Positions 3,383-29,865 of a DNA stretch of 64,000 bases are shown one piece after another. The position numbers and the translations under genes were made by a program. The notes beneath the pieces are model-generated. The model had not been told where the DNA came from, did not search any database, and was given only the letters and a program-made list of their open reading frames with translations. The stretch comes from Candidatus Porifericomitaceae bacterium (GTDB taxonomy: Bacteria > Pseudomonadota > Gammaproteobacteria > Porifericomitales > Porifericomitaceae), in the NCBI GenBank assembly GCA_965212005.1, contig OZ243038.1:1857440-1921439 (forward strand). Direction: 5' to 3'. Every line of letters starts with the position of its first letter. The stretch's first letter is position 1.

Positions 3383-4068
3383 GGTATTTCCGCATCGGGC
3401 CGGTGGGATCATTGCCTGCCCGGAGTATTGTACGCCGCGGCCTTAATCCCCGGTTTTTGATATGGCTCCGCCGCCCATTCCATTGTTTTTGCCGCGCCCT
3501 TCCGGGGTGGGGCAGAACACGACTGAAACCCTGGGTAGAACCAGTTCAGCCTGCTCCCGCGCTATGGTATCATGGTCGGTTGGCGGCTGCGATTTGCATG
3601 CCGCATACTGTGCACGACGATACAGAGTTGGCTTGCGGGAGCGGGCCGGCAGTGTCCGACGTCCTCCCGCAGTCCCGTGAGAGCAGGAGAAGACGCGGTG
3701 GTGTTTTTAGAATGTGTACTTGGAAAAGGTGTATCTGTCAGAATTATAAGCGCTGTGGCGGTCCCGGGAGTGATCCTGCGGTGCAAAGGGCCGGTTTCTC
3801 CTGGGACCGGTAATGAATGGGAGAGTCCGGCAGACGGGTGTACGGGCTTGCACAGGTTCCGCGGTTCGGCGCCGTATACAGAGCGTTGTGGCGGGGAGCC
3901 GAACAGGCGTTATCTATTGGGTTATGTAGGGGTTATGTGGCTTTTTAAGATGGTTGAGACAGGCAGGCGCTCGCCGGGCGCTGCTGCGCGGAGCGCTCGG
4001 CCCGGAGGGGCCCGGGGGTCTGCGGGCGGGCGCCGGGCAGCTTATGCGGCAGGTACAGAGGGACGGGA

Positions 4069-7926: not shown

Positions 7927-9582
7927 ATGCCAACCCTCGATTTCAAAGGCAAACCAATCGTTTACGCCCACCACCTTACCGTACCGTCAAGGCCGCTGGA
8001 GGTGGACGCGAAAAAATCTCTGCCGCCAAAGAGCAAAAAGCCCTCCCTCGACGATAACCTGATCATCCACGGCGACAACCTGCACGCGCTCAAGGCGTTG
8101 ATGCCGCGTTATGCGGGCAAAGTGAACTGCATTTACATTGACCCGCCCTACAACACCGGCAACGAAAAATGGATTTATAACGACAACGTGAACAGCCCGA
8201 TGATGAAGGAATGGCTGAAGGGCAAAAGCCCGGTGGACGGCGAGGATTTGGAGCGCCACGACAAATGGCTGTGCATGATGTGGCCGAGGTTGCAGTTGTT
8301 GAGGGAGTTGCTGGCAGAGGACGGGGTAATTTTTGTTTCTATTGATGATAATGAGCAGCATCGCTTGCGGATGATGATGGATGAGATTTTTGGGGAGGAG
8401 AATTTTATTTCAACTGTTATCTGGCACAAAATGGACAGCCCTAAAAATACAGCAATTCACATAAGCGAAGATCATGAAAGCGTACAGATTTTTGCAAAAA
8501 ATGCTGATATTTGGAGACCTAACAGATTACCAAGAACTGCGGAAATGCTAGCTCGGTATAAAAATCCGGATAATGACACCAGAGGACCGTGGTTGCTCAG
8601 TGATCTAGCTGCCAGAAATCGGTACTCGCGTGGACGCTACCCTATAACGACTCCTTCTGGGAACAGAATTAAAGGACCACCTGCTGGAAGTTTTTGGCGA
8701 GTAAGCAAGGAAAAATTTGATGAACTGGACGCGGATAATCGAATTTGGTGGGGAGAAACTGGTAATAACCGACCCGGGATAAAGCGATTTCTTTCAGAGG
8801 TTCAAGAAGGCGTTGTGCCTCGGTCTCTTTGGGAGTGGAAGGAGGTAGGAAGTACTCGACACTCAAAACAAGAATTGAGTGGAGTTATGTCCGCGCAGGC
8901 CTCCTCGGATATTTTCGTGACACCGAAACCTACGGGACTAATCAAACGTATCCTACAGATCGCATCAGACAAAAGCTCGGTTATCCTGGATTCTTTCGCT
9001 GGCTCTGGCACAACCGCCCATGCCATCCTTGCCCTCAACAAAGAAGACAGCGGCAACCGCAAGTTCATCCTTGTCGAATGCGAAGATAAGATCGCCGACA
9101 AAATCACCGCCGAGCGCGTCCGCCGCGTGATAAAAGGCGTCAAGCAATCAAAAGACGAAAACCTGAAAGCCGGCCTCGGCGGAAGTTTCACCTACTGCAC
9201 CCTGGGCGAAGAAATGAGCATCGAAAAAATGCTCACCGGCAAGAGACTCCCCGACTATGAAACCCTGGCCCGCCACCTTTTCTGGACCGCAACCGGACAA
9301 TCAGTAGACAAAATCCGCAACACAAGAGGCAAAGACGGCTTCTTCCATGAAACGAAAGACAGACTGTTCTACCTGGTTTACGAACCAAAACTTCCTTTCC
9401 TGCGCAGCACCGAATCCGCCCTGAACAGCGACCGCGCCGAACGGGTCGCCAAACAGGCAAAGACAAAAAAGAAAACCGCAGTCGTGTTCGCCACCCACAA
9501 ATTTGTCGGGCAAAAGGAACTAACCCGGATGGGAATAGTATTTTGCGGACTGCCATACGGGACTGCAACCAATCAAGGTTAA
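7927..9582 (+). CDS. mod: Type III restriction-modification DNA methyltransferase (Mod subunit, N6-adenine, beta class)
   Basis: The GDNLHALKAL...VNCIYIDPPYNTGNE motif IV lies near the N-terminus, and the SAM-binding motif I (ILDSFAGSGTTAHA) lies near the C-terminus. This order is typical of Type III Mod proteins (compare EcoP15I Mod). Confidence 0.85.
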   Translation: MPTLDFKGKPIVYAHHLTVPSRPLEVDAKKSLPPKSKKPSLDDNLIIHGDNLHALKALMPRYAGKVNCIYIDPPYNTGNEKWIYNDNVNSPMMKEWLKGKSPVDGEDLERHDKWLCMMWPRLQLLRELLAEDGVIFVSIDDNEQHRLRMMMDEIFGEENFISTVIWHKMDSPKNTAIHISEDHESVQIFAKNADIWRPNRLPRTAEMLARYKNPDNDTRGPWLLSDLAARNRYSRGRYPITTPSGNRIKGPPAGSFWRVSKEKFDELDADNRIWWGETGNNRPGIKRFLSEVQEGVVPRSLWEWKEVGSTRHSKQELSGVMSAQASSDIFVTPKPTGLIKRILQIASDKSSVILDSFAGSGTTAHAILALNKEDSGNRKFILVECEDKIADKITAERVRRVIKGVKQSKDENLKAGLGGSFTYCTLGEEMSIEKMLTGKRLPDYETLARHLFWTATGQSVDKIRNTRGKDGFFHETKDRLFYLVYEPKLPFLRSTESALNSDRAERVAKQAKTKKKTAVVFATHKFVGQKELTRMGIVFCGLPYGTATNQG

Positions 9583-9622: not shown

Positions 9623-11719
9623 ATGAGCAAAGAAACAGGAAAGCTCGCACAAAGAGCAAAACAGCTTTACGAAGAAGAAAATTGGAACGAATTGATCCCA
9701 GTAGCCACTGAGTGGATTGATTTGGAACAAGAACCGGAAAGGCAAGCACAGGCATACAATGACCGTGGCTTTGCCTACGCCCGAAAAGGCGATTATGACC
9801 ATGCCATTGCAGATTTTGATAAGGCAATAGCATTGGCACCCCGCGATGCGATGGCATACAGCGGGCGTGGCCTTGTCTACGCCGAAAAAGGTGATTATGA
9901 CCGTGCCATTGCAGATTGTGATAAGGCAGTAAGATTGGCACCCCGCGATGCGATAGCATACCGCCGGCGTGGCATGATCTACGCCAAAAAAGGTGATTAT
10001 GACTGTGCCATTGCAGATTTTGATAAGGCAATAGCATTGGCACCCCGCGATGCGCTGGCATATAGCCGGCGTGGCGATGCCTACTACGAAAAAGGCGATT
10101 ACGCCCGTGCTATTGCAGATTTTGATAAGGCAGTAGAATTGGCACCCCGCGATGCGCTGGCATACAGTGGGCGTGGCATGTTCTATGTTCAAACAGGAGA
10201 TTATGCCCGTGCCATTGCAGATTTGGGTAAGGCAATAAAAAGGGATCCTCGCGATGCGATGGCATACCGCTGGCGTGGCATGGCCTACGCCGAAAAAGGC
10301 AATTATGCCCGTGCCATTGCAGATTGTGATAAGGCAATAGAATTGGTTCCCCGCGATGTGATGGCATACAGCTGGCGTGTCAGGTCCTACATCGAAAAAG
10401 GCGATTATGCCCGTGCCATTGCAGATTGTGATAAGGCAATAAAATGGGATCCCTGCGATGCGATGGCATACCGCTGGCGTGTCTTTGTCTACGCCCGAAA
10501 AGGCGATTATGACTGTGCCATTGCAGATCTTAATAAGATAATAAAATTTACTCCCCAGGATGCGATGGCATACCGCTGGCGTGGCATAGCCTACGCCCGA
10601 AAAGGCGATTATGACCAGTCATTTGATGACCTAAACAAAGCGGTAAAACTTGATCCAGCACTACCATTTCGCATTCCAGAAACTTATATCGCAGATCAGA
10701 TAAAAACCATCTTTAAAACTGAGGATAAAACAAAATATGAAGCCTTTAAATTCTATTTTAGATTATCACAAGCAATTAAGGTCTTACAGAAAAAATTGTT
10801 TTATGCGAAAAAAACTGGAGTTGCCCATTACACATCCTTTCATACGATCAAACATCTTGGCCAAAAGGGGCGTTTTCGGCTTTACAACGCAGCCTATATG
10901 AATGACCCGGAAGAAGGGCGTATATTTTCTGAAATAATGAAAGAAGATCATAAGGTAGACGTAAGGAAATTTTATCCAGATAACGAAAACCTGTCTCATC
11001 TCTCTCCGGCCTATATAGGCAGTTTCGTCCAATTGGATTCCAGTGAACGGGATAAACTATTTCTGTGGCGAACGTATGGAAAACATGAGGCGAAGGAAGC
11101 GGCCGGATGCTGCCTGATCTACAGGCAGATGTGCTTTGCAAAAAGCTATCAACCCCAAATCGGCGCCATGCAACAACAACAATTGCAATATGATTCCCTA
11201 TCAACAGCGCAAACAGTAAAGAGTAAAAAACCAGAATCCAGTCGGGACACCAAACCGTGTCTTTATAAAATCATCTATAGGAACACGAAAGACCACAAAA
11301 AGCTCTCCCAAGAATTAAAAAAGCTTGCAGAATGCCTGAATAACATAAAGGATTTTATAGAAGGAATAGAACACAAAGAGGACAACAAAAACATATTAGA
11401 ACTTGCCCGTGCACTGCTTGACAGTATCCGTTTCCTTTTCAAAGGAAGCCATTACAGTGAGGAAAAGGAAGCCCGGGTGTGCAGTATTCGTTATTACAAG
11501 GCAGGTGGGACACAGGAATCGGATGAAATAAAAGTGGACACGGAACAGATTCCGCCACGTTTCTATTTGGATACCCCGGAAGCCTTCCAATTCAGCAAAG
11601 TAATACTCGGCCCGGGAGCACAGAATATCCCGGAATGGGAGCGGTGGTTCAAGGAACAATTTAAGAAGGATGTGGAAGTGCGACACTCCCAAATACCCTA
11701 CGGAACGCGTTCTTCCTAA
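9623..11719 (+). CDS. TPR-repeat protein (about 9 TPR units) with a C-terminal DUF2971-like domain
   Basis: N-terminal 34-aa repeats (GDYDRAIADCDKAIELAPRDAMAYSWRG...). The C-terminal ~350 aa carry the VAHYTSFHTIKHL...RLYNAAYMNDPEEG signature, which I associate with the DUF2971 family. AT-rich codon usage unlike the flanking genome. Confidence 0.6.
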   Translation: MSKETGKLAQRAKQLYEEENWNELIPVATEWIDLEQEPERQAQAYNDRGFAYARKGDYDHAIADFDKAIALAPRDAMAYSGRGLVYAEKGDYDRAIADCDKAVRLAPRDAIAYRRRGMIYAKKGDYDCAIADFDKAIALAPRDALAYSRRGDAYYEKGDYARAIADFDKAVELAPRDALAYSGRGMFYVQTGDYARAIADLGKAIKRDPRDAMAYRWRGMAYAEKGNYARAIADCDKAIELVPRDVMAYSWRVRSYIEKGDYARAIADCDKAIKWDPCDAMAYRWRVFVYARKGDYDCAIADLNKIIKFTPQDAMAYRWRGIAYARKGDYDQSFDDLNKAVKLDPALPFRIPETYIADQIKTIFKTEDKTKYEAFKFYFRLSQAIKVLQKKLFYAKKTGVAHYTSFHTIKHLGQKGRFRLYNAAYMNDPEEGRIFSEIMKEDHKVDVRKFYPDNENLSHLSPAYIGSFVQLDSSERDKLFLWRTYGKHEAKEAAGCCLIYRQMCFAKSYQPQIGAMQQQQLQYDSLSTAQTVKSKKPESSRDTKPCLYKIIYRNTKDHKKLSQELKKLAECLNNIKDFIEGIEHKEDNKNILELARALLDSIRFLFKGSHYSEEKEARVCSIRYYKAGGTQESDEIKVDTEQIPPRFYLDTPEAFQFSKVILGPGAQNIPEWERWFKEQFKKDVEVRHSQIPYGTRSS

Positions 11720-11753
11720 TCCCACTCAAAGCCCGCCAACAAACCACAGCGAA

Positions 11754-11850
11754 CGGCGGTCGTGTCTACCACCCACAAGTTTAGGGGGCAGAAGGAACGG
11801 ACGGAGAGGGGAGTAGTATTTTGCGAATTGAGACCCTTTTCACTACAATG
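11754..11850 (+). repeat. Diverged duplicate of the mod 3' terminus (last ~30 codons), located after the TPR/DUF2971 gene
   Basis: 11757-11832 (cggtcgtgtctaccacccacaagtttagggggcagaaggaac...gtagtattttgcg) aligns at about 70-75% identity with mod 9476-9560 (cagtcgtgttcgccacccacaaatttgtcgggcaaaaggaac...atagtattttgcg). The translation AVVSTTHKFRGQKERTERGVVFCELRPF compares with Mod AVVFATHKFVGQKELTRMGIVFCGLPYG. Confidence 0.8.
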
Positions 11851-11855
11851 AAGTA

Positions 11856-12962
11856 GTGGCAATGACTCCCTTCTCTCCATCGCACTGGGCTGCTTCCTGT
11901 ACACACCAGGAATGCTCATTACACCAGCTATCGCCATATATAGGAAAGCTAAAGAGCACGATCGCTCAAGACTTGATTCTGAAATACAGTAAACCAGGTG
12001 AGTTAGTAGTTGATGCGTTCTGTGGCAGCGGGACCGTACCATTAGAAGCTGCCCGCCTGGGGCGCAGAGTATTTGCCTCTGATACGAGTAGATATGCCGT
12101 CACACTAACTAAAGGGAAACTTAAGGCGCCAAACACAGCTAATGCTGCGCTTGCCTCTCTTGATAGTGTTTTGAAACACAGAAAGTCCCTGCCTACACCG
12201 GATATCAGGTATGTTCCTCGTTGGGTTAGAGCCTTCTTTCACCCCCACACACTCAAAGAAACGTTGCAATTTACAAGGTATCTCAAGCAGGAGCGTCAAT
12301 ATTTTCTGCTGGCATCTTTACTTGGCATTTTACATCATGAGCGTCCTGGGTTTCTATCGTTTCCAAGTAGTCACCTTGTTCCTTATCTTCGATCAAAAAA
12401 ATATCCCAGGGCAAGCTATCCTGCTCTTTATAACTATCGTCCACTGATTCCGCGCTTGACGGCAAAAATAAACCGAGCATTAAAACGACCGCCAAAAGAA
12501 GAATTGACCAAGTGGGTTGAAGGCATACGCCAGTCCTCTGTTGGATCTGTCAATTTGCCTAACTCTATTGACTGTGTTATTACAAGTCCACCCTATATGA
12601 ATGCGCTTGACTACGGGCGTGATAACCGTCTTAGGCTCTGGTTTTTGGGAGAATATGATATAGAATCATTAGATCGTCCCCTTGGGACTATTCAAGGTTT
12701 TACGCATGCAATAACGTCACTTGCCAAACAATTACAGCAAAAAGTGCGAGTGGGTGGCTATTGTATTTTTGTTATCGGCGAAAAATTGATAAGAAAGAAA
12801 GACAGGCTCCCTTCTGAAGAGTTAATGGAAATTTTTACAGTTCATGCGCCGGCAATTAGACTATGTAATATTATTAGTGACGTGATTCCTGATATTCGTC
12901 GCTCCCGCAGATATATTGCTGGAGTGAAGCAGGAAAATATTCTTGTATTTAGAAAATACTAA
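11856..12962 (+). CDS. DNA methyltransferase (N4-cytosine or N6-adenine, SPPY type)
   Basis: Motif I (ELVVDAFCGSGTVPLEAARLGRRVFASD) near the N-terminus and motif IV (ITSPPYMNALDYG) near the C-terminus. An SPPY motif is more typical of N4C methyltransferases. Start is GTG at 11856 or ATG at 11862. Confidence 0.75.
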   Translation: MAMTPFSPSHWAASCTHQECSLHQLSPYIGKLKSTIAQDLILKYSKPGELVVDAFCGSGTVPLEAARLGRRVFASDTSRYAVTLTKGKLKAPNTANAALASLDSVLKHRKSLPTPDIRYVPRWVRAFFHPHTLKETLQFTRYLKQERQYFLLASLLGILHHERPGFLSFPSSHLVPYLRSKKYPRASYPALYNYRPLIPRLTAKINRALKRPPKEELTKWVEGIRQSSVGSVNLPNSIDCVITSPPYMNALDYGRDNRLRLWFLGEYDIESLDRPLGTIQGFTHAITSLAKQLQQKVRVGGYCIFVIGEKLIRKKDRLPSEELMEIFTVHAPAIRLCNIISDVIPDIRRSRRYIAGVKQENILVFRKY

Positions 12963-12964
12963 TC

Positions 12965-15400
12965 ATGCGTAGAAATATTCCAGAGAAAACACAGTTTCTT
13001 GGAAAGAAGATAGATCGATTCCCTGACCATGAAATCAAAACGCATATTGCTACAGGGAACAATGGACATCTATTTCTTGCGTTTAATGAATCAACAAAAA
13101 GCAAACTTGCATTCAAAATTATTCCTGTCGATAATCTACTCAATGGATATTTAAATGAGGCAAAAAAACCTAACTCTTTAGAAAATCCATCCGTTGTTAA
13201 ATGCCATGATGTTGTTAAATATCCTGATTCAAAATTAAATTGCATAGTGTTCATATATGACTACGTTGAAGGTGAAAATCTTAGGGATTATATGAAGGAA
13301 AAACGATCAAATATAGATATACCATTCATTGAGAATTTTTTGAAAACCATGTTTGGATTATTATATGAACTTGATAGACGTGAATCTCAGCATGGTGATT
13401 TGCATCCTGGCAATATACTTGTTGCACACTCTGCATATGATTTATCAAGAAAAAAAACCTTCCGTGTGACAGATTTTGGTGTCGGAGAGTTAATTGGACA
13501 GGATGCTCATGCGAATGACTACCTGAATGTTGCAAACACGCTCAGGAAATTACTGGGTTGTGTAAAATATGGTGAGTGCGAGGGGCGGGACAGATATATT
13601 TACAATATTCTTAAGAATGATTTTTTGGGTAGGCACCTATTTGAAACAGACACTAGCGCAGACCCCTTGGCTTGCAACCCTTGGGGGCTGAACAACAAAC
13701 TAGAAAAATTGGATGCAGAGTGGAGAGACCAAAAACAGCCGGATCAAGATAAGCTTGAAACACCTTTTGATTATCCCAATTGTGAGCAAATTGGAAACTC
13801 TCATTTATTGCTTAAAAGTCTTTACTCAGACCGACTCCTTGGCTTATCTGAAATTCAGGAAAAAGCCAACCTCATGCTAACTGGACCTCGCGGATGCGGA
13901 AAGACAACGGTCTTTCGCGCTCTGAGTCTGGAATATTTGATTTCAACTCATGAGAGCAGTCCATCTGACTTGAAGTATATTGGCATCTATTACAGATGTG
14001 ACTACCTATACTTCTCCTTTCCTAGATATAAGCATCCCGAACGTACCGAGGCATTGGATATCCCCATGCATTTTCTTATTGTTACGCTGTTAGCGGCTAC
14101 ACTGGAGCAAATAGGTGCATGGGCAAAAGAATATTTCTCAGATCAATTAGCAAAGGAAGAGGAAGCTCTTGTTTCGGAACTGTGGAACATTTTTGAATGG
14201 GATGCCCCAGATGCTCCGAGCGGCAATCAATTGACTACTTTGGTCAATAGACTAAGAAAAGAAAGCAAGCGTGCCGTAAATAAACAACAGGTTGCTCATG
14301 TCGCAGCCGAACCTATCCAAGGCTATTTTGGCCCGGGAATTATGTTGCAAGCCTGTGCTTTTATTAGAAAAAAATTTACTTGTTTAGAAAATCGTCCTTT
14401 TTACTTCTTTATAGACGATTATTCTGCCCCAAAGATTACCAAAGAGTTGCAGGCAAATCTTAATCGATTAGTGATGCATCGCAGTCCAGATGTTTTTTTT
14501 AAACTCTCGACGGAAAGTCCTGTCTCTTTTGTGCGATATGATATTGATGGTAAGCAATTTGTTGAAAAGCGCGAATACGTTTTGTTAAATCTTGGATTAA
14601 GATATATTAAAGATGATTCAAATGATACTTTGGCTTTTCTTGAAGATCTTTTTAAGCGCCGATTTGCAGAGGTCTCAGGCTATCCTGTCGAAACACTTGA
14701 AGAGCTTTTAGGATCAAGACCACGCAATGAGAATGATACGGCTCGTGCCTTCCTAGATAAAGAAAAAAGGAATTATTATGCTGGACAAGATACAGTCGCT
14801 GCTATGTGTAGCGGTGATATTCACTATATGATTCGTCTTGTTGCCAGAATGGTAGAAGAAAATGGGGGTAAAGAAAGTCTCACGGATTGCGACACAATAC
14901 CTAAAATTTCAATGGAAAAGCAAAATGAATCAATTCGTGCTGCAGCAGGCGACTTCATGGAATCAATACGCACATTGCCTAAGACAGGCCCAATACTAAC
15001 AGAGGTTATAACTGCATTTGGAAATGTAGCACATTCTTATCTTATGCATGCAGTATCAAGAAATGAAGGAAAGGAAAATCCTCACCAGGCATCAAGGATA
15101 GAACCGTACGAAGGGTTGAATCTTTCTACTGAAGCGGAAGATATTCTTGAAGAGCTACTGCGTTACTCGGTACTCATTGAAGATCCTCGTGGAAAGAGCC
15201 GCAGAGGTGAGGTTGTCTCGAGATTTTACCTGCGACGTTACATAATCCCACATTTCCGCTTAACATTTAGTAAACGAGATTCCATTCAATTGGAAAATAG
15301 CCAGATTGAAATGCTCTTGCGTGACCCTAAAAAATTCAAAAACAGGATGATGTTGAAATTGAAAAGACATTTCAGTCAAAAGGATCTGTTTGAGTTATGA
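12965..15400 (+). CDS. Eukaryotic-like Ser/Thr protein kinase domain fused to a C-terminal P-loop NTPase (811 aa)
   Basis: Kinase subdomains in order: Gly-rich loop (IATGNNGHLFLAF), the lysine (LAFKII), the HGDLHPGNILV catalytic loop and the DFG motif (VTDFGVGE). These are followed by Walker A (LTGPRGCGKTT) and Walker B (FYFFIDDYS). AT-rich. Confidence 0.7.
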   Translation: MRRNIPEKTQFLGKKIDRFPDHEIKTHIATGNNGHLFLAFNESTKSKLAFKIIPVDNLLNGYLNEAKKPNSLENPSVVKCHDVVKYPDSKLNCIVFIYDYVEGENLRDYMKEKRSNIDIPFIENFLKTMFGLLYELDRRESQHGDLHPGNILVAHSAYDLSRKKTFRVTDFGVGELIGQDAHANDYLNVANTLRKLLGCVKYGECEGRDRYIYNILKNDFLGRHLFETDTSADPLACNPWGLNNKLEKLDAEWRDQKQPDQDKLETPFDYPNCEQIGNSHLLLKSLYSDRLLGLSEIQEKANLMLTGPRGCGKTTVFRALSLEYLISTHESSPSDLKYIGIYYRCDYLYFSFPRYKHPERTEALDIPMHFLIVTLLAATLEQIGAWAKEYFSDQLAKEEEALVSELWNIFEWDAPDAPSGNQLTTLVNRLRKESKRAVNKQQVAHVAAEPIQGYFGPGIMLQACAFIRKKFTCLENRPFYFFIDDYSAPKITKELQANLNRLVMHRSPDVFFKLSTESPVSFVRYDIDGKQFVEKREYVLLNLGLRYIKDDSNDTLAFLEDLFKRRFAEVSGYPVETLEELLGSRPRNENDTARAFLDKEKRNYYAGQDTVAAMCSGDIHYMIRLVARMVEENGGKESLTDCDTIPKISMEKQNESIRAAAGDFMESIRTLPKTGPILTEVITAFGNVAHSYLMHAVSRNEGKENPHQASRIEPYEGLNLSTEAEDILEELLRYSVLIEDPRGKSRRGEVVSRFYLRRYIIPHFRLTFSKRDSIQLENSQIEMLLRDPKKFKNRMMLKLKRHFSQKDLFEL

Positions 15401-16437
15401 ATGATACCTTATTGAAGGCAGATGAACAGTTACTTGTTATGGACTGGCCCAGTCTGCAAAAGATTGATGTACCTTCACTCAAGGCCAGTGACTTATATTT
15501 AGTATGTGTGGGCTTTGAAGATCGGGCTATAGAAACACTTCATCGAATCTGTGAGGCTGGAAGCAGGGAATTTTCGCTTGTTCTAGTGAACTATCGTCCA
15601 GAATATAAAGAGAATAGAAGAGAAGAGATTCTTGAAATCGCACGGCGGGCGGATTTGACAGTGCACGAGATTGTTTATGACCGAGAGAACCCGGCAGGTA
15701 TTGGAAAAGAGCTAGACTTCTCAGCAGATCGGATATTTGTGGATATTTCTGGCATGTCGCGTCTTCTCATAGTCCAAGTCTTGGTAGCACTAATCGGCAT
15801 TCAGGAACGGGCAATAAATATAATTTATGGTGAAGCAGCAGAATATTTCCCTTCTAAAGAACAATTCGAACGAGATCAGGCAAATGATGACAACAATTTG
15901 GAACATAGCTATCTATCTTCCGGGATTTTTGAAATAGCAATAGCGCCCGAATTAAGTTCTGTATCTATGTTAGGTGAAGCAATTAGATTGATAGCATTTC
16001 CATCACTTGATCATGTGCAACTCACCAATGTAATGCAAGAATTGCAACCTACTTATGCAGAATTTATTGATGGCATACCACCTGATGAAGGTAATGAATG
16101 GCGAACGGAAGCAATTCGAATAATTAATCATAGGACTATTAGTGCAGTTAAAAACCCTGTAACTCATCAAGCATCTACACTTGATTATAGAAAGACGTTA
16201 AAAATTTTGCTAGATATATACGAAGAGCGCAGCATGTTTGACCGACTTGTAATTGCGCCAACTGGCAGCAAAATGCAGGCTGTTGCCGTTGGTTTATTGA
16301 GATCTTTTCTTGACGATGTGCAAATTGTTTATCCAACGCCACATATTTTTACACACCCCAAGAGATATACATCTGGACTAAGTCAAATATATGAAGTCCA
16401 TATTCCATCTAAAGAAATACTTGCAAAATTAAAGTGA
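15397..16437 (+). CDS. Hypothetical protein with a Rossmann-like fold and possible CARF/SLOG-like sensor motifs. Translationally coupled to the kinase gene.
   Basis: ATGA overlap with the upstream stop. Beta-strand/Gly patterns (LYLVCVGFEDR, FVDISGMSRLLIV, LVIAPTGSKMQAV) are reminiscent of CARF D-I-T-G-G-x-K signatures. The assignment is speculative. Confidence 0.35.
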   Translation: MNDTLLKADEQLLVMDWPSLQKIDVPSLKASDLYLVCVGFEDRAIETLHRICEAGSREFSLVLVNYRPEYKENRREEILEIARRADLTVHEIVYDRENPAGIGKELDFSADRIFVDISGMSRLLIVQVLVALIGIQERAINIIYGEAAEYFPSKEQFERDQANDDNNLEHSYLSSGIFEIAIAPELSSVSMLGEAIRLIAFPSLDHVQLTNVMQELQPTYAEFIDGIPPDEGNEWRTEAIRIINHRTISAVKNPVTHQASTLDYRKTLKILLDIYEERSMFDRLVIAPTGSKMQAVAVGLLRSFLDDVQIVYPTPHIFTHPKRYTSGLSQIYEVHIPSKEILAKLK

Positions 16438-16502: not shown

Positions 16503-19049
16503 ATGCAACTCAAAACCTACCAACAAAAGGCCCTTGAACAATTAGACCGCTATCTTGAGGCGCTCAAAGAAGAGCGTCTGAAAAGTGAAAAAGCGGCGAC
16601 ATTTTTTGCGGAGCAGAACAGTGACGCTCCTGAAGACCTGAAAAATTATCCGCGCGCCGCATGGCAAACTCTGACGAAACAGGGCGTTCTCCCCAGCGTT
16701 GCAACGGGTCGAAATACCGAAATCCCCGACCCTATCCCCCGCACTGCAACCTCCGGCGACCCCATCCCCCACGTCTGCCTGAAAGTGCCCACCGGTGGCG
16801 GCAAGACGCTGCTGGGCGTCGCCGCCCTGGAACGTATCCAGCGGGACCCGGGCTTTGTGCTGTGGATTGTGCCGACCAGGGCGATTTACGAGCAGACTAT
16901 CATGGCTTTCCGAACCCGTGAACATCTCTACCGGCAGATGCTGGAGCAGATTTCCGGCGGCAAGGTGAAGCTGCTGCAGAAAACCGACCGCTTCACCCGG
17001 CAGGATACTGAAAACTACCTGTGCGTGATGATGCTGATGCTGCCGTCCGCCAACCGGCAGAGAGGAAAGGATTTCCTCAAGATATTCCGCGACAGCGGCA
17101 ATTACCCTTCTTTCTTTCCTGAACAGGACGACTTCGCCGCCAACCGGAAATTTGCCGAGAGGCATCCCGACCTTGAGCAAAACGAAACCGACGATTGGGC
17201 CAAACAAAGCCTTATCAATGTACTCAAACAGGTCCGCCTCACCGTGATTCTGGATGAGGCGCACAAGGCGTATGGACAAAATGACGCGAACAACAAGGAG
17301 TTTGTAAAGTCCGTCAACCGCCTGAATCCCCACTTTGTACTCGAACTTTCCGCCACGCCGAAAATCGGCATCAGTAATATCCTGGTTAACATATCGGGGA
17401 CCGAACTGTATGACGAGGAGATGATCAAACTGCCCATTGAGATTCACAGTTTCAGTAATTCCGACTGGCAGTATGCGCTTGCCCAAACCCAGGCGAAGTT
17501 AAGCCAACTGGAAAAAGAGGCGCGGCAACTAAAACAAAGAGAAAATCGCTATATTCGCCCTATCGCCCTGGTGCGGGTGCAGCGAACCGGCAAAGGGCAA
17601 AGAGAGCGGGGATACATTCATGCCGAGGATGCGCGGGAACATTTGATACAAAACCTTGCCGTGCCGGAAAATCAGATCCGGATTCAATCATCGGAACAAA
17701 AGGAACTCGAGGGTGAGGATTTGTTGAGTGAGGCCAGTCCCGTCCGCTGGATTATTACCAAAGACGCCCTGAAGGAGGGCTGGGACTGCTCGTTTGCCTA
17801 CGTGCTGGCGTTGCTGGACAACACCACGGCCACAACCGCCATGACGCAGATGGTCGGGCGGGTGATGCGGCAGCCCCATGCGCGCCGGATCGGGAACAGC
17901 AAGCCGCTGAACCAATGCTATATCTACTGCTATAACCAGGACGTGGGCAACGCGATTAAAAGTGTGAAAGCCGGCCTGGACAGAGGGGGACTGACGGGGC
18001 TTGGGGATGCCATTCTCGGCTACGGCGACGGTGAGGACGATGCGCCGAAGCCGATAACCGTGAAACGCCGGGGAAGATATAAGCGGTTGAACATCTTTCT
18101 TCCGCAGGTCTTGCACATACAGGGGAAAAAGTGGCGTCCCATTGATTACGACCGCGATATTCTGGGCGCGGTGGACTGGGGCAAGATTAACGGCGGTGGA
18201 GCGACCAATCTGGACGACAAAGACGTCATTCAGGAAATCAAGGCCACGGTTGATATTCAGGGGGAAAGTGATGTTTCCCAGAAAACGCTTGATACCGGGG
18301 AAAGTGTGACCCTGGATTATTTTGTCCGGCGGCTTACCGACATGCTTCCGAATCCGTGGCAGGCGGCGCGCGTGGCGGAGCGCTTTCTGAAACGGCACAA
18401 GGACAAAAAGCACGATGATGCGCAATTGCTGATCAACCGGATTTATCTTTCGGAAGTGCTAAGGCGCAGGGTGAAAACGGCCATTGACGGCAAGGCCGAG
18501 TCGGTGTTCCGGGGCAAGGTGCAGCAGAACCAAATCCGGTTTCATCTGGAAACCGATGAGCGGCTGGATTACGAACTGAACAGGTCGTTTGAGGTTTTTG
18601 TTTCCAGCAGAGAAAGGCGACTTCATGGTCCGCACAAGCCGATACAGCAGAGCCTTTTTTCTCCGGTTTACGAAAGCAGCTTTAACGATCTGGAAAAGGA
18701 CTTTGCGCTTTATCTGGACACGGATCAGGCAATCTATTGGTGGCACAGAATCGCTGCACGGCAGGCGTATTCCCTTCAGGGTTGGCGGCGGCATCGAGTG
18801 TATCCCGATTTTGTAGCCTGCCGGAAAAACGATGGAAAGCTGTTGATCCTGGAAACAAAAGGCATTCACCTGAAAGGCAACGAGGACACCGATTACAAGC
18901 AAAAATTACTGGAGATGCTGGAGAAAACGTATGAAACCGCCCTTGAAAGAGGCCAGTTCAAAGTACGGGAGCCGCCCGCCCAATTCAGGATGATGTTTGA
19001 GGATACATGGCCGGAGGACATGAACGAACTCCTCCAGGAAGGCAATTAG
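16503..19049 (+). CDS. res: Type III restriction endonuclease (Res subunit, SF2 helicase-like)
   Basis: Helicase motif I (LKVPTGGGKT), motif II DEAH-like (VILDEAHKAYG), and a QxxGRxxR-like motif (MTQMVGRVMRQP). The size (848 aa) and the position next to mod fit Res. Confidence 0.8.
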   Translation: MQLKTYQQKALEQLDRYLEALKEERLKSEKAATFFAEQNSDAPEDLKNYPRAAWQTLTKQGVLPSVATGRNTEIPDPIPRTATSGDPIPHVCLKVPTGGGKTLLGVAALERIQRDPGFVLWIVPTRAIYEQTIMAFRTREHLYRQMLEQISGGKVKLLQKTDRFTRQDTENYLCVMMLMLPSANRQRGKDFLKIFRDSGNYPSFFPEQDDFAANRKFAERHPDLEQNETDDWAKQSLINVLKQVRLTVILDEAHKAYGQNDANNKEFVKSVNRLNPHFVLELSATPKIGISNILVNISGTELYDEEMIKLPIEIHSFSNSDWQYALAQTQAKLSQLEKEARQLKQRENRYIRPIALVRVQRTGKGQRERGYIHAEDAREHLIQNLAVPENQIRIQSSEQKELEGEDLLSEASPVRWIITKDALKEGWDCSFAYVLALLDNTTATTAMTQMVGRVMRQPHARRIGNSKPLNQCYIYCYNQDVGNAIKSVKAGLDRGGLTGLGDAILGYGDGEDDAPKPITVKRRGRYKRLNIFLPQVLHIQGKKWRPIDYDRDILGAVDWGKINGGGATNLDDKDVIQEIKATVDIQGESDVSQKTLDTGESVTLDYFVRRLTDMLPNPWQAARVAERFLKRHKDKKHDDAQLLINRIYLSEVLRRRVKTAIDGKAESVFRGKVQQNQIRFHLETDERLDYELNRSFEVFVSSRERRLHGPHKPIQQSLFSPVYESSFNDLEKDFALYLDTDQAIYWWHRIAARQAYSLQGWRRHRVYPDFVACRKNDGKLLILETKGIHLKGNEDTDYKQKLLEMLEKTYETALERGQFKVREPPAQFRMMFEDTWPEDMNELLQEGN

Positions 19050-19189
19050 CGTATTTTTTAGGAGGCACGTATCAGGGATCATCTGCGCAGTCCAGCCTGC
19101 TGCTCCTGCCCCAGCGGGGCTTTTTGAGCATTGCCGGGGCGCACAGGTTGAGATTTCAAAAGCCATCGCCTATATTTCAGGGACCACCA

Positions 19190-21463
19190 ATGTCAACCCC
19201 TCCGAAAAAATCAACTAAGTCTATAAAAACCATTGGCGAATTCCTTGACTGGACAGGGAAACAGGAAGGCTCTTTGTTTCTCTATCGCGGAGTGTCTGCT
19301 CCCTACATGGAAATGGAAGCATCGGCATATCGCAGAATAAAGGAGAACCAGGAGGAAGATACGGTTCCTTCAAAAATATTTATCAATTATCACGAGCGAC
19401 TTCTGGATAGAGCCAGATTGGAGGGATTTGACGATCAACAGGGCAAGGATCCTTCCGACCTGGAATTACTTGCCAGGTTACAGCACTATGGCGCGGCAAC
19501 ATGCCTGATTGATTTTACCGCAGACCCTTTGATCGCATTGTGGTTTGCTTGCCAGGGAAGCGGGCAGACAAATGGAAAAGTCGTTGCCATGGCAACGGGT
19601 GATGTCCAAGACTTCGCCGCAGTGAAACACGAAGACTTGAAGAAGCCTGTCAAGGAATTCCTCAAGGAGGAAACACTGTGGAAATGGTCTCCTCGGCGCC
19701 AAAACAATCGCATTATTGCCCAGAAGTCAACGTTTATATTCGGAAAAAGTACGATCCAGGAGAGTTGCTACAAGACTGTCAAGATAGACAAAGAAAGCAA
19801 AGGAAACATTATTAATGAATTGTGGAATAGATTTGAAGTTACTGAGCAGTCCCTTTTTGGCGATTTTGTCGGTTTCTCTCTTGCCAATGCCCACGACAAA
19901 CCTTACAGCGACTATAACTCAGAAGACTATTTTATTTTTGGACTAACCTGCAGTCAGAGAAAAGAGTATCAGAAAGCGATAGATTATTACGACAAGGCGA
20001 TAGCGATTAACCCTGAATATACCGAGGCATATCACAATCGTGGTCATGCAAAGGATGCCTTGAGAAAGTATAAAGGAGCGATATCGGATTATGACAAGGC
20101 GATAGCCATTAATCCTAAATTGGCCGAGGCATATAACAATCGCGGCAATGCAAAGGATGCCATGGGCGAGCATAAAGGAGCGATAGCGGATTATGACAAA
20201 GCGATAGCCATTAATCCTAAATTGGCCGAGGCATATCACAATCGTGGCCATGCAAAGGATGCCATGGGCGAGCATAAAGGAGCGATAGCGTATTATGATA
20301 AGGCGATAGCCATTAACTCTCAATATGTCGAGGCATATACCAATCGCGGAGCTGCAAAGGATGCCTTGGGTGATCATCAAGGAGCGATAGCGGATTACGA
20401 CAAGGCGATAGCCATTAACCCTGAATATGCCGATGCATATAACAATCGCGGCAATGCAAAGAATGTCTTGGGCGAGCATAAAGGAGCGATGGTGGATTAT
20501 GGCAAGGCGATAGACATTAATCCTAAATATGCCGATGCATATTATAATCGCGGCAATGTAATGTATGCCTTGAGCGATCATCAAGGAGCGATAGCGGATT
20601 ATGACGAGGCGATAGCCATTAACTCTCAATATGCCGAGGCATATACCAATCGCGGCCATGCAAAGTATTCTCTGGGTGATCCTCAAGGAGCGATAGCGGA
20701 TTATGACAAGGCGATAGTCATTAATCCTAAATCGGCCGAGGCATATAACAATCGCGGAAATGCAAAGAATGTCTTGGGCGACCATGAAGGAGCGATAGCG
20801 GATTATGGCAATGCGATAGCCATTAATCCTCAATATGCCGAGGCATATAACAATCGCGGCAATACAAAGGGTGCCATGGGTGACCCTCAAGGGGCGATAG
20901 CGGATTATGACAAGGCGATAGTCATTAATCCTAAATTGGCCGAGGTATATAACAATCGCGGAAATGCAAAGAATGTCTTGGGCGACCATGAAGGAGCGAT
21001 AGTGGATTATGACAATGCGATAGCCATTAATCCTCAATATGCCGAGGTATATACCAATCGCGGCAATGCAAAGGGTGCCTTGGGCGACCCTCAAGGGGCG
21101 ATGGCGGATCATGATAAGGCGATAGCCATTAATTCTGAATTGGCCATGGCATATAACAATCGCGGCAATGTAAAGAATGTCTTGGGCGACCATGAAGGAG
21201 CGATGGCGGATTATGACAAGGCGATAGCCATTAATCCCCAATTGGCCATGGCATATAACAATCGCGGCAATGCAAAGAATGTCCTGGGCGACCGTGAAGG
21301 AGCGATAGCGGATTATGACAAGGCGATAGCCATTAATCCTGAATTTGCCATGGCATATAAAAATCGCGGCGATGCAAAGAAAGCCCTGGGCGACCGTGAA
21401 GGAGCGATGGCGGATTATGACCAGGCAATCGCCATTGACCCATCAATACGCCGAGGCATATAA
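19190..21463 (+). CDS. FRG-domain protein fused to a long TPR array (about 16 units)
   Basis: Start at the ATG 19190 (MSTPPKK...). The N-terminal 250 aa carry FLYRGVSAPY and LARLQHYGAATCLIDFTADPLIALWFAC, resembling the FRG-domain signature (FRGQ / QHYGLPTRLLDWT). The rest is 34-aa TPRs (AIADYDKAIAINPKLAEAYNNRGNAKDAMGEHKG). The C-terminus AIAIDPSIRRGI is shared with the downstream family. Confidence 0.7.
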   Translation: MSTPPKKSTKSIKTIGEFLDWTGKQEGSLFLYRGVSAPYMEMEASAYRRIKENQEEDTVPSKIFINYHERLLDRARLEGFDDQQGKDPSDLELLARLQHYGAATCLIDFTADPLIALWFACQGSGQTNGKVVAMATGDVQDFAAVKHEDLKKPVKEFLKEETLWKWSPRRQNNRIIAQKSTFIFGKSTIQESCYKTVKIDKESKGNIINELWNRFEVTEQSLFGDFVGFSLANAHDKPYSDYNSEDYFIFGLTCSQRKEYQKAIDYYDKAIAINPEYTEAYHNRGHAKDALRKYKGAISDYDKAIAINPKLAEAYNNRGNAKDAMGEHKGAIADYDKAIAINPKLAEAYHNRGHAKDAMGEHKGAIAYYDKAIAINSQYVEAYTNRGAAKDALGDHQGAIADYDKAIAINPEYADAYNNRGNAKNVLGEHKGAMVDYGKAIDINPKYADAYYNRGNVMYALSDHQGAIADYDEAIAINSQYAEAYTNRGHAKYSLGDPQGAIADYDKAIVINPKSAEAYNNRGNAKNVLGDHEGAIADYGNAIAINPQYAEAYNNRGNTKGAMGDPQGAIADYDKAIVINPKLAEVYNNRGNAKNVLGDHEGAIVDYDNAIAINPQYAEVYTNRGNAKGALGDPQGAMADHDKAIAINSELAMAYNNRGNVKNVLGDHEGAMADYDKAIAINPQLAMAYNNRGNAKNVLGDREGAIADYDKAIAINPEFAMAYKNRGDAKKALGDREGAMADYDQAIAIDPSIRRGI

Positions 21464-21940
21464 CAATCGCGGCGATGCAAAGAATGCCCTGGGCTACATA
21501 CAGACGGTATCCGCAGGGGAAACAGCAGGTGATGGCTGAAACGAGGGTTCCGTAGGGTAGGCCGGGACGGGTGCACTCCTATCGGACGGGCCCGGGGAGC
21601 CCCGGCGGAAAAGCGGGCAGGTGGTCATGGCCCTCAAAGAGCCAGTGCGACCTGTGCTGGCAGAACGAAACCACTGCTCTGTAACGAAGCTGAGCTGTCG
21701 ACAGCTGCGGGACTGCGCCAGGGCCCGTGCCGGCACCAGCTTACGCACTATACTTTGCTTGTTTTTGGGGGTATCTTTAAGGTTAAGCAGCGGGAAGAGG
21801 AGGCCGTCCGTAGTGGCAGCCATCTTGTTGACTGCATGGTAAAAAAAGCTTTGCGTAACGCCAGGAACGGGGTTTGCAGGCACGTCAGGCAAGAAGGCAA
21901 AGCAGGGGAGGAGCATACCCCTGCCCAAAGGAGTATCGCG
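21464..21940 (+). repeat. Conserved intergenic leader, copy 1 of 5
   Basis: About 470 bp, near-identical to 24305-24778, 27572-28045, 29327-29865 and 31198-31678. It ends with AAAGGAG-N7-GTG. Confidence 0.9.
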
Positions 21941-24304: not shown

Positions 24305-24778
24305 CCATCGCGACTATGCAGCCCCCTGGTCTACGATAAGACAGTATCCGCAGGGGAAACAGCAGGTGATGCCTGAAACGAGGGTTCCGTAGGGTAGGCC
24401 GGGACGGGCACACTCCTATCGGACGGCCCCGGGGAGGCCCGGCGGAAAAGCGGGCAGATGCCAGGGTCCTCAAAGAGCCAGTGCAATCTGTGTCGGCAGA
24501 ACGAAACCACTGCTCTGCAACGAAGCTGAGCCGCCGACAGCTGCGGGACTGGCACCAGGGCCCGTGCAGGCGCTGCTTACGCACTATACCTTGCTTGTTT
24601 TTTGGGGTATCTTTCAAGGTCAACGCAGCGGGAAGAGGAGGCCGTCCGTAGTGGTCGCCATCTTGTTGACTGCATGGTAAAAAAGCTTTGCGTAACGCCA
24701 GGAACGGGGTTTGCAGGCACGTCAGGCAAGAAGGACAAGCAGGGGAGGGAGCATACCCCTGCCCAAAGGAGTGCCGCA
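24305..24778 (+). repeat. Conserved intergenic leader, copy 2 of 5
   Basis: Near-identical to the other four copies. Confidence 0.9.
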
Positions 24779-27571: not shown

Positions 27572-28045
27572 CCATCGCGGTTATGCAGCCCCCTGATCTA
27601 CGATAAGACAGTATCCACAGGGGAAACGGCAGGGGATGCCTGAAACGAGGGTTCCGTAGGGTAGGCTGAGCCGGGCGCACTCCTATCGGACGGCCTCGGG
27701 GAGGCCCGGCGGAAAAGCGGGCAGATGCCGGGGTCCTCAAAGAGCCAGTGCAATCTGTGTCGGCAGAACGAAACCACTGCTCTGCAACGAAGCTGAGCCG
27801 CCGACAGCTGCGGGACTGGCACCAGGGCCCGTGCAGGCGCTGCTTACGCACTATACCTTGCTTGTTTTTTGGGGTATCTTTCAAGGTCAACGCAGCGGGA
27901 AGAGGAGGCCGCCCGTAGTGGCCGCCATCTTGTTGACTGCATGGTAAAAAAGCTTTGCGTAATGCCAGGAACGGGGTTTGCAGGCAGGTCAGGCAAGAAG
28001 GCAAAGCAGGGAAGGGAGCATACCCCTGCCCAAAGGAGTGTCGCG
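27572..28045 (+). repeat. Conserved intergenic leader, copy 3 of 5
   Basis: Near-identical to the other four copies. Confidence 0.9.
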
Positions 28046-29326: not shown

Positions 29327-29865
29327 CGGCAATGCAAAGAAAGCCCCCTGGTCTACGATAAGACAGTATCCGCGGGGGAAACGGCGGGGATGCCTGCAAC
29401 GAGGGTTCCGTAGGGTAGGCTGAGCCGGGCGCACTCCTATCGGACGGACCTCGGGGATGCCCTGCGGAAAAGCGGGCAGATGCCAGAGCCTCAAAAGAGC
29501 CGGTGCGATCGGTGCCGGCAGAACGAAACCACTGCTCTGCAACGAAGCTAAGCCGTCGGCAGCTGCGGGACTGGCACAAGGGCTCGCGCCGGTGCCAGTT
29601 TGCGTACTATACTTTTCTTGTTTTTTTGAGGTATCTTTAAGGTAAGTGACTGTTATATTGGAGGAAGATATTACTATACTTTGCTTGTTTTTGAGGGTAT
29701 CTTTAAGTTTAAGCAGTGGGAAGAGGAGGCCGCCCGTAGTGGCCGCCATCTTGTTGACTGCATGGTAAAAAAGCTTTGCGTAATGCCAGGAACGGGGTTT
29801 GCAGGCACGTCAGGCCAGAAGGCAAAGCAGGGGAGGAGCATACCCCTGCCCAAAGGAGTGCCGCG
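29327..29865 (+). repeat. Conserved intergenic leader, copy 4 of 5 (contains an internal ~65-bp duplication)
   Basis: The module ctatacttt(g/t)cttgttttt...gtatctttaag occurs twice (29608-29650 and 29677-29720), separated by an AT-rich spacer. Confidence 0.9.

Follow-up and report, generated by a model that had tools for sequence, protein, structure and literature searches.

A TPR-DUF2971 gene between mod and res of a type III restriction-modification operon: a candidate sensor-effector defence gene in a variable cargo slot

Introduction

Why does a restriction-modification (R-M) operon of type III carry, between its methyltransferase and restriction genes, a gene for tetratricopeptide repeats (TPRs) fused to a DUF2971-like domain? 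This question is raised by a stretch of 64,000 nucleotides from Candidatus Porifericomitaceae bacterium (Gammaproteobacteria; assembly GCA_965212005.1, contig OZ243038.1, positions 1,857,440 to 1,921,439 of the forward strand), the whole of which is herein referred to as the window. The gene in question, located at positions 9623-11719 of the window, is called the TPR-DUF2971 gene below. With slightly more than even confidence, we interpret it as a self-contained sensor-effector defence gene of the Aristaios kind, riding in the cargo slot of a mobile type III R-M system.

In the preliminary description of this DNA, DUF2971 was said to have no known function, a statement that is now outdated. 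In a 2025 survey, the family was assigned to the H-Y-E clade of ADP-ribosyltransferases (ARTs), with DarT, AbiGi, and Tox-ART-HYD1 as the nearest families (PMC12522546). According to the same survey, the histidine of motif I is poorly conserved in DUF2971, the tyrosine is strictly conserved, and an ExE motif is present, while large helical inserts, one of them between strands 4 and 5, blur the structural similarity (PMC12522546). Aristaios, a DUF2971 protein of 316 aa that is predicted to adopt an ART fold, has been validated by experiment as a single-gene abortive-infection system, which stops phage transcription or protein production (PMC11381338, PMC13064643, PMC12967558).

Architecture of the TPR-DUF2971 Gene

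The following features were found in the gene, all on the + strand:

9623..11719, +, TPR-DUF2971 gene, ATG start, 698 aa; same sequence as database protein P0121
9623..9745, +, N-terminal cap, aa 1-41 (MSKETGKLAQRAKQLYEEENWNEL...), shared by homologues including P0116 and L072
9746..10663, +, nine TPR units, aa 42-347, laid out manually; Pfam TPR_1, E = 5.2e-63
9764..10616, +, 102-bp DNA tandem repeat beneath the TPR array, 8.4 copies, 83% matches
10664..10807, +, linker of two long helices, aa 348-395 (AlphaFold2 model m476a8cc72587, model residues 8-19 and 24-48)
10808..11716, +, DUF2971/ART-like domain, aa 396-698 (AlphaFold2 model; hhalign to a DUF2971 member; PF11185 match at aa 481-619)
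10826..10837, +, HYTS motif, aa 402-405, in core strand 1; H402 a candidate for the histidine of motif I
10901..10918, +, NDPEEG motif, aa 427-432; E431 and G432 invariant, D428 conserved in at least 90%
11063..11080, +, LWRTYG motif, aa 481-486; W482 and Y485 invariant, Y485 the candidate motif II tyrosine; start of the PF11185 match
11459..11476, +, EEKEAR motif, aa 613-618; E614, E616, and R618 invariant, candidate ExE motif III; end of the PF11185 match

The preliminary description of nine TPRs followed by a domain of about 350 aa with the signature HYTS...NDPEEG agrees with the open reading frame (ORF), with the Pfam scores of its product (TPR_1, E = 5.2e-63; TPR_2, E = 7.5e-62), and with the positions of the motifs at aa 402 and 427. 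Periodic ORFs on the opposite strand are spurious and result from the 102-bp DNA repeat of the TPR array. No hydrophobic N-terminal segment or signal peptide was seen on reading the protein sequence, and the protein is thus probably cytoplasmic.

The C-terminal Domain as a Divergent Member of DUF2971

The C-terminal portion of the protein (aa 348-698, about 350 aa) had been associated with DUF2971 by its motifs. This link holds at the level of the family, but not at the level of the protein's own Pfam score. When the domain alone was compared with PF11185, a match was found at 17.2 bits (E = 0.014), which falls short of Pfam's gathering score of 22; apart from DUF2971, the scan at E up to 10 listed a single, spurious family. 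The match extends over aa 481-619 and covers the whole 89-position profile, interrupted by a helical insertion of about 50 residues.

Relatives of the domain match the family better. PF11185 was matched by 13 of the 15 close homologues at E ≤ 1, the limit of the search (best E = 1.2e-5), and by 36 of 60 diverse relatives at E ≤ 1e-3 (best E = 1.1e-8); TPRs were found in 48 of these 60. A search of 5.8 billion proteins with the domain yielded 229 relatives, nearly all of them TPR fusions, a minority of which already have a precomputed PF11185 match. A profile search of 1.84 billion cluster representatives (50% identity) yielded 2390 proteins at E ≤ 1e-3. In a tblastn search of plasmids, proteins annotated by NCBI as "DUF2971 domain-containing protein" were matched with E = 4e-18, 1e-15, and 6e-12 and with 77-96% coverage of the domain, the best of these matches covering 96%. 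Finally, the profile of the focal family (alignment A1) was aligned by hhalign with WP_100908708.1 from Lacticaseibacillus paracasei (318 aa), a bona fide DUF2971 member scoring 38.4 bits against PF11185. The alignment has a probability of 98.8% and E = 6.1e-17 over 271 columns, and all four motifs are in register. WP_100908708.1 has Q at the position of the motif histidine, in agreement with the published description of the family (PMC12522546).

Because this family-level evidence from profiles, tblastn, and hhalign is decisive, the C-terminal domain is assigned by sequence comparison to DUF2971 as a divergent member, at the family level only. Within this known but barely studied family, the window protein is a variant fused to TPRs.

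Conservation within the domain was analyzed in alignment A3, which contains 139 diverse relatives with 23-53% identity to the window domain. Ten residues are invariant in these relatives: H402, E431, G432, W482, Y485, Y552, K607, E614, E616, and R618. The window protein is intact and keeps all ten. The motif pattern of an [H/x]YTS strand, an NDPxE loop, WxxY, and ExExR is likewise complete in it.

No family was matched by the domain in scans of PADLOC and PHROGs. A match to the NCBIfam family YciH was dismissed as a chance match (E = 0.018; 15 bits, with a cut-off of 142). A homologue that seems to lack TPRs, P0014, owes this look to an artefact of assembly: its TPR array is interrupted by a run of N (L072, 5900-7100; numbers of this form denote the loci compared), and the N-terminal cap and first TPRs are legible upstream of it. 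Short database homologues of the TPR-DUF2971 protein should therefore not be read as natural TPR-less forms.

The association of TPRs with DUF2971 is also found in another form. On plasmid pL11434-1 of L. paracasei (L073, 1955-3906), a TPR gene of 318 aa is located directly upstream of a DUF2971 gene of 318 aa, and this pair is a split form of the fusion. An additional upstream TPR gene at this locus is disrupted by an IS5 element. Since TPRs and DUF2971 are fused in thousands of proteins and split into neighbouring genes on the L. paracasei plasmid, their pairing, as judged from these gene arrangements, is functional and not accidental.

Predicted ADP-Ribosyltransferase Fold

An AlphaFold2 model built from alignment A1 (15 sequences) had a predicted local distance difference test score (pLDDT) of 50 and was discarded; a model built from A3 was used instead, with a mean pLDDT of 91.5 and a predicted TM-score (pTM) of 0.90. 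In this model, the HYTS motif lies on the first strand of a β-core, and a three-helix insertion (aa ~514-603) is located between the fourth core strand and the fifth, which bears the ExE motif. This confidently modelled insertion corresponds to the helical insert reported between strands 4 and 5 of DUF2971 (PMC12522546). The conserved residues H402...Y485...E614/E616 fit an enzyme of the H...Y...ExE type, with motifs I to III assigned after the published description (PMC12522546). An ART fold is likely for the C-terminal domain, the fold and the chemistry both being predicted from the literature and the motifs.

The weak, non-significant Foldseek matches of the model in PDB (37 rows) include DarT four times (7omv, 7yk3, 7omx, 7omu), CteC four times (8ux2, 8hte), and Tpt1 once (7yw4). 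ART folds, with these 9 rows, are enriched in the weak list. No significant match was found by Foldseek in BFVD, and a profile search of PDB sequences yielded only chance matches (YacP and designed coiled coils, E > 0.3). The Pfam family of DarT, which we take to be DUF4433/PF14487, was not listed in the scan of the domain at E up to 10.

The TPR Array and Its Relation to the Downstream TPR Genes

The nine TPR units of the focal protein keep a constant 34-aa register with zero indels in the manual layout, and their consensus is AMAYswRGxaYAeKGDYDRAIADxDKAIkLaPRD. They conform to the TPR scaffold pattern at positions 4, 7, 8, 11, 20, 24, 27, and 32 of the 34-residue unit. Thus, Y4, Y11, and P32 are invariant, and G8, A20, and A27 are present in seven or eight of the nine units; in units 7 and 8 the canonical G8 is replaced by V. 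Variability is found mostly at the helix-A positions 2, 5, 6, 9, 10, 12, and 13. In TPRs, these positions form the ligand-binding face.

A possible common origin of this array with the secreted TPR proteins encoded downstream had been proposed on the grounds of similar units, in spite of a difference in nucleotide composition. Three sets of 34-aa units were compared: the nine focal units, 79 units from the five downstream TPR genes, and 862 units from homologous TPR-DUF2971 proteins. The downstream consensus is AeAYxNRGxaKxALGDrEGAIaDYDQAIAINPQy, and that of the orthologues is AxAYxxRGxAYxxKGdyDxAIaDFxKAIeLxPxx. The focal units have the orthologue-specific Y11, K14, Y17-D18, and L30 and lack the downstream-specific K11, L14, G19, and I30-N31. 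All nine score 45-60 bits with a hidden Markov model (HMM) of the orthologues vs. 18-41 bits with an HMM of the downstream family. Between the focal gene and the downstream family, the identity of the 102-bp DNA consensus units is 53% overall and only 32% when third codon positions are considered. Because of these HMM scores and the third-codon identity, the two groups of repeats are classified by sequence as distinct subfamilies, and the proposed common origin is not supported. The residues that had suggested it (AIADxDKAI...P...AY..RG) sit on general TPR scaffold positions. The difference in composition also fails for the repeats themselves: their G+C content is 0.508 in the focal gene and in the downstream family alike, and only the G+C content at third codon positions (GC3) differs (0.44 vs. 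0.50).

Within the TPR-DUF2971 family, units of the same protein have a mean identity of 0.46 (0.615 in the window protein) vs. 0.35 between proteins, and the number of detected units per protein varies from 4 to 14. This indicates that units have been amplified locally within proteins.

Recurrent Location in a Variable mod-res Slot

The R-M genes of the window and the remnant between them are as follows:

7927..9582, +, type III Mod methyltransferase, 551 aa; N6_N4_Mtase, E = 2.9e-39; PADLOC MTase_III, E = 2e-179; motifs DPPY and FAGSGTT
11726..11830, +, mod 3'-end remnant, corresponding to Mod aa 508-542; matched by tblastn with E = 5.7e-8 and by blastn with E = 1.3e-10 (77% over 74 nt)
16503..19049, +, type III Res, 848 aa; ResIII/DEAD (Pfam); motifs GGGKT and DEAH and a C-terminal PD...ETK nuclease motif

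The operon has the components of a type III system, a Mod with a variable target-recognition region and a Res helicase-nuclease encoded on the same strand, in an atypical gene order. The mod gene ends 40 nt before the TPR-DUF2971 gene and forms the left border of a cargo slot whose right border is res; in the window, the gap between mod and res is 6.9 kb. The TPR-DUF2971 gene had been called the first cassette gene. This holds for the cargo between mod and res, but not for the low-GC island as a whole, in which Mod precedes it.

In other genomes, a TPR-DUF2971 gene was found between Mod and Res homologues in L003/L008, L004, L005, L007/L027, L009, L011, L013, and L037. Together with the window, nine distinct complete loci of this kind were found. 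Partial versions, with Mod only, a Mod remnant, or a contig end, were found in L012, L029, L002/L006, L014, L028, and L033. Those genomes among these loci that have a name are annotated as metagenome-assembled genomes of Nitrospirales, Dehalococcoidia, Gammaproteobacteria, and Binatia. The slots contain one to three tandem TPR-DUF2971 paralogues, and in most loci res starts 3-6 nt past the stop codon of the cargo. Across the loci, identity to the window is 62-73% for Res, 57-72% for Mod, and 42-55% for the cargo domain. Res homologues with 71-76% identity are present in many genomes (more than 120 cluster representatives at ≥71% identity). For the host HtpG, no relative exceeds 56% identity, and the nearest named ones belong to Gammaproteobacteria. 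Res is thus 62-76% identical across phyla, whereas relatives of the host HtpG reach at most 56%.

Additionally, five Res homologues without a linked TPR-DUF2971 gene were examined. Their mod-res intervals contain the following:

L067: Trypsin_2, a 263-aa protein, and PIN
L068: a 179-aa protein and Lipase_3
L069: a 1-kb gap with no called gene
L070: a HicB-like protein and an 81-aa protein
L071: Lipase_3, a HicB-like protein, proteins of 271 aa and 174 aa, and DUF1828

HicAB is a toxin-antitoxin family. In total, mod and res are at least 1 kb apart in all 14 distinct complete loci examined, nine with and five without the TPR-DUF2971 gene. In canonical type III systems, mod and res abut. EcoP15I and EcoP1I resemble the window enzymes in the N6_N4 methylase fold and variable target-recognition region of Mod and in the SF2 helicase and PD-(D/E)xK nuclease of Res; in the clade of the window, unlike in these canonical systems, interchangeable cargo keeps the two genes apart, and mod-3' remnants delimit this cargo.

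Such remnants, short copies of the Mod C-terminus (about aa 480-545), were found at cassette junctions in the window and in nine other distinct loci. In L004, L005, and L029 they separate tandem TPR-DUF2971 copies; they precede the TPR-DUF2971 gene in L002, L003, and L014 and follow it in L012, and in L068 and L071 they lie between cargo genes. In four of these loci, their positions are:

L004: 7480-7566
L005: 5800-5955, 8035-8121, 11324-11413, and 14619-14751
L029: 9101-9202
L071: 3556-3624, 3954-4064, and 5546-5644

In L071, the Res N-terminus has left a remnant as well (3436-3543). In the window, the remnant at 11726-11830 sits exactly between the stop codon of the TPR-DUF2971 gene and a second cassette of lower G+C content with kinase and CARF-like genes. 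The mod-3' remnants look like scars of successive insertions or recombinations.

The Mod protein itself has a mosaic pattern of conservation. Among 12 loci, identity amounts to 74-92% in its parts at aa 1-150 and 349-551, with a drop to 69% in the last ~20 residues, and to only 17-42% in the target-recognition region (aa 151-349). A hypervariable region on a conserved scaffold implies that one Mod scaffold serves many different recognition sequences. The conserved arms, which flank the hypervariable region, have about 80% nucleotide identity across phyla and thus offer ample homology for cassette exchange. A dedicated recombination site at the mod 3' end was considered and found to be unsupported, as synonymous-site conservation there is 0.46-0.63 and does not exceed that in the N-terminal arm (0.51-0.63).

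The TPR-DUF2971 gene is also found apart from R-M genes. The same chromosomal site, flanked by radical-SAM genes and a DUF3047 gene, occurs in three genomes: L003 has the full Mod-cargo-Res locus there, L002 a Mod remnant and the TPR-DUF2971 gene, and L001 the TPR-DUF2971 gene alone. These three states show that the gene outlives the R-M system, and its invariant residues are intact in L001 and L002. The sponge isolate Fulvitalea axinellae has a solitary homologue on a plasmid. Neither Mod nor Res accompanies the more distant relatives (below ~45% identity), some of which lie beside a GmrSD-type restriction gene. Thus, in L018 (3208-9413, Candidatus Porisulfidus sp.) and L021 (3119-9330, Candidatus Oxydemutatoraceae), a distant homologue follows a conserved trio of a 1096-aa protein without a Pfam match, a PAPS-reductase-like protein, and a restriction enzyme of the GmrSD type (DUF262). 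Downstream, an AAA ATPase is encoded in both loci, which represent a further restriction-linked context.

No description of the mod-cargo-res arrangement in type III systems was found in the searchable literature; the only third type III component found there is a helicase-like ATPase encoded 5' of mod. To our knowledge, the recurrent placement of TPR-DUF2971 genes in a variable mod-res slot with mod-3' remnants has not been described.

Other Genes of the Low-GC Island

The operon belongs to a low-GC island (~7.9-31.3 kb, G+C 0.38-0.55) located between pgpA and an SLT/htpG pair (G+C ~0.6-0.68). The G+C content is 0.457 for the TPR-DUF2971 gene (GC3 0.433), 0.499 for Mod, and 0.539 for Res. Other features of the operon are:

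11856-12962, +, methyltransferase, N6_N4/UPF0020-type (second cassette)
12965-15400, +, Ser/Thr kinase fused to an ORC/CDC6-like ATPase; PADLOC CARF6--CARF_STK_AAA, E = 1e-28
15397-16437, +, CARF-like protein without a Pfam match (second cassette)
19108..19120, +, terminator-like hairpin (GCCCCAGCGGGGC then TTTTT), right after the res stop; consensus match only

The second cassette (11856..16437) has the lowest G+C content in the island (0.39-0.44), and this set of methyltransferase, kinase-ATPase, and CARF-like genes is carried by none of the other loci examined. The kinase-ATPase has weaker matches to mad6, mad8, and PD-T4-6. A promoter-like site lies ahead of the cassette at 11821-11849. 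The hairpin after res is likely the end of the operon. In the promoter and terminator scans of the region, the numbers of sites were not above the shuffled expectation.

Five large TPR genes follow the operon. The product of the first, listed as ORF 19007-21463, is a fusion of about 15 TPRs to an FRG domain at the N-terminus (PF08867, E = 3.5e-15), and its N-terminal part matches two PHROGs that have no assigned function. The listed ORF overlaps the end of res. Judging from the hairpin at 19108-19120 and the promoter-like site at 19148-19176, its real start may lie downstream, near 19190. The other four genes (21755-31197; 849, 989, 485, and 473 aa as listed) are paralogues. They have a common signal-peptide-like N-terminal leader ending in ...RARRAVCCLLSCLVSGLPAL..SLATD, and their 102-bp units are 81-89% identical in DNA, with occasional units of 123 bp that represent a 7-residue duplication. 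These paralogues fit the "eukaryotic-like" TPR proteins of symbionts.

Discussion

If the TPR-DUF2971 gene is a self-contained defence gene, as we are marginally inclined to think, its TPR array would act as a protein-binding sensor or an autoinhibitory module that evolves fast by amplifying its own units, and its C-terminal domain would be an effector of the DarT/AbiGi-like ADP-ribosyltransferase type. The trigger would be the binding of a phage-derived (or cellular) protein by the TPR module or the loss of a partner. The ART domain would then use NAD+ to ADP-ribosylate a nucleic-acid or protein target, and phage gene expression would be shut down, probably at the expense of the cell. The operon would thereby provide two layers of defence, restriction first and an abortive-infection effector second. 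Sensor-like evolution is suggested by the identity of the cargo domain across loci (42-55% vs. 62-73% for Res), by the tandem paralogues, and by the amplification of units. Independence from the R-M enzyme is suggested by the homologues that persist in L001 and L002 and alone on the F. axinellae plasmid.

A number of observations weigh against this interpretation. The domain alone stays below the Pfam threshold of DUF2971 (17.2 bits), no ART family appears in its Pfam scan at E up to 10, and its PADLOC scan is empty. No Foldseek match in PDB reaches E ≤ 1e-3, and the target-normalised TM-scores for DarT are 0.38-0.45. The window protein and Aristaios are linked through PF11185 only and are likened by description. 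Some distant relatives lie amid housekeeping genes, so association with defence islands is not universal. Neither a macrodomain nor another reversing enzyme is encoded nearby, judging by the Pfam domains of the neighbours; control would therefore have to be intramolecular if the enzyme is toxic.

Several known systems have features in common with the window gene. Aristaios, from the Lactococcus plasmid pUCCL641_199, is likewise a DUF2971 (PF11185) protein with a predicted ART-like fold and no partner antitoxin, and it is found on mobile DNA among defence genes (PMC11381338, PMC13064643). It differs in its length of 316 aa, in lacking a TPR array, and in standing alone on a plasmid and not inside an R-M operon; the window protein, for its part, is a distant DUF2971 member with an extra insertion of ~50 residues and a sub-threshold Pfam score. 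DarT, the single-stranded DNA (ssDNA) thymidine ADP-ribosyltransferase of DarTG, is reported to be near DUF2971 in the H-Y-E clade (PMC12522546), and its structures are the best real, though non-significant, fold matches of the window model (7omv, 7yk3, 7omx, 7omu). In contrast to DarTG, the window has no nearby DarG macrodomain antitoxin and no DarT profile match (Pfam, PADLOC), and its domain differs from DarT in large helical insertions, the N-terminal TPR array, and the low TM-scores. The fast-evolving repeat array joined to an effector also resembles the Avs/STAND NTPases, although the sensor role of the window array is only proposed here. Avs/STAND NTPases are examples of TPR-sensor defence proteins, in which a fast-evolving, phage-sensing repeat array is fused to a toxic effector. 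The window protein has no NTPase switch domain to link its sensor with its effector, and its effector is ART-like, not a nuclease, protease, or Sir2.

PrrC, a toxin-like effector whose gene is inserted within an R-M operon, is silenced by the EcoprrI enzyme and released by a phage anti-restriction peptide (PMC12707154, PMC3458546). By analogy, the TPR array could bind the Mod2Res complex and be held silent by it, and a phage anti-restriction factor that disables the enzyme would free the ART effector and abort the infection; the gene would then serve as a third subunit of the system and be more than a passenger. Nine distinct loci, the window included, have the TPR-DUF2971 gene enclosed by mod and res, and the start of res 3-6 nt past the cargo stop suggests translational coupling. 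PrrC itself provides a precedent, lying inside the type Ic EcoprrI locus and being activated when T4 Stp inhibits the enzyme (PMC12707154, PMC3458546), and the alternative cargo of the slot is also toxin-like (PIN, protease, lipase). We nevertheless regard such a guardian role as unlikely. The cargo of sister loci is unrelated and includes a HicB antitoxin-like gene, which fits a hotspot better than a dedicated partnership, and the survival of the gene with intact catalytic residues after deletion of mod and res (L001, L002) argues against obligate masking. The gene is also found alone on a plasmid and in other contexts, and in the window the three genes of the second cassette stand between it and res. 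Moreover, PrrC belongs to a type I system and combines an ABC-ATPase with a HEPN nuclease, while the window gene belongs to a type III system and combines TPRs with an ART-like domain, and the variable slot with its many alternative cargo genes is unlike the PrrC locus.

The position between mod and res could also be explained by regulation of restriction: the ART domain would modify Res, Mod, or DNA to tune or delay restriction, for instance during establishment in a new host, or would add a second self-mark. DarT-type enzymes do modify DNA bases (PMC12522546, citing DarT work), and third proteins of unknown role are present in other type III systems (PMC8259958). This is improbable to a degree that leaves it well behind the guardian role, since the PIN nuclease, protease, or lipase of the sister loci would be incapable of the same regulatory chemistry, the TPR-DUF2971 gene persists without R-M, the catalytic motifs of Mod are intact so that no substitute mark is needed, and no reversing hydrolase is present. 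Only a shade more probable, and still very unlikely, is that the protein is a eukaryote-directed symbiont effector, its TPRs targeting sponge proteins and its ART toxin modifying them, with the proximity to R-M genes incidental. Several relatives belong to organisms with names suggestive of sponges (Candidatus Spongiihabitans, Candidatus Porisulfidus, Fulvitalea axinellae); these, as well as Nitrospira sp. SB0675_bin_23, we take by their names to be sponge associates. The island has five large TPR genes, four of them with a common signal-peptide-like leader, and ~18% of DUF2971 proteins are predicted to be secreted effectors (PMC12522546). The TPR-DUF2971 protein itself, however, has no signal peptide or hydrophobic N-terminus, its TPRs belong to another subfamily than those of the leader-bearing proteins, relatives are present on plasmids of Streptococcus and Lacticaseibacillus, which have no sponge host, and the recurrent placement in R-M operons of several phyla points to an intracellular, phage-related role. 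Least probable of all is an inactive passenger, a decaying hitch-hiker kept between two selected genes. It could be suspected from the G+C content of 0.457 (GC3 0.433), unlike that of Mod and Res, from the V in place of G8 in TPR units 7 and 8, and from the remnants and gaps in the slots of other loci; against it stand the uninterrupted frame of 698 codons covering the domain end to end, the retention of all ten invariant residues, and the very confident AlphaFold2 model (pLDDT 91.5).

The defence interpretation can be extended to the operon as a whole. In a bolder form, which we consider doubtful, the type III clade would be a widely transferred cassette platform, and the TPR-DUF2971 protein would be a guardian that senses interference of phages with restriction and ADP-ribosylates nucleic acid. 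The mod-res interval would gather interchangeable abortive-infection effectors (TPR-ART, PIN, protease, lipase, kinase/CARF), and every cassette that joins would carry in or leave behind a copy of the mod 3' end as a recombination arm and perhaps as an internal promoter. If this is true, PrrC/EcoprrI would have its first counterpart among type III systems, and the TPR-fused branch of DUF2971 would gain a function.

With reports from about 6,000 species, DUF2971 ranks as a very large family, yet it has one tested member and no biochemistry. Its TPR-fused branch is itself large (2390 clusters at 50% identity), and its members are labelled in databases only as "tetratricopeptide repeat protein." The repeated placement in type III operons gives a concrete experimental handle on the activity of the domain, on sensing by the TPRs, and on coupling between the layers of defence. 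The mod-res slot with its mod-3' scars would be a new and easily searched hotspot for the discovery of defence genes, and it would exemplify how R-M systems ferry other immune genes between phyla.

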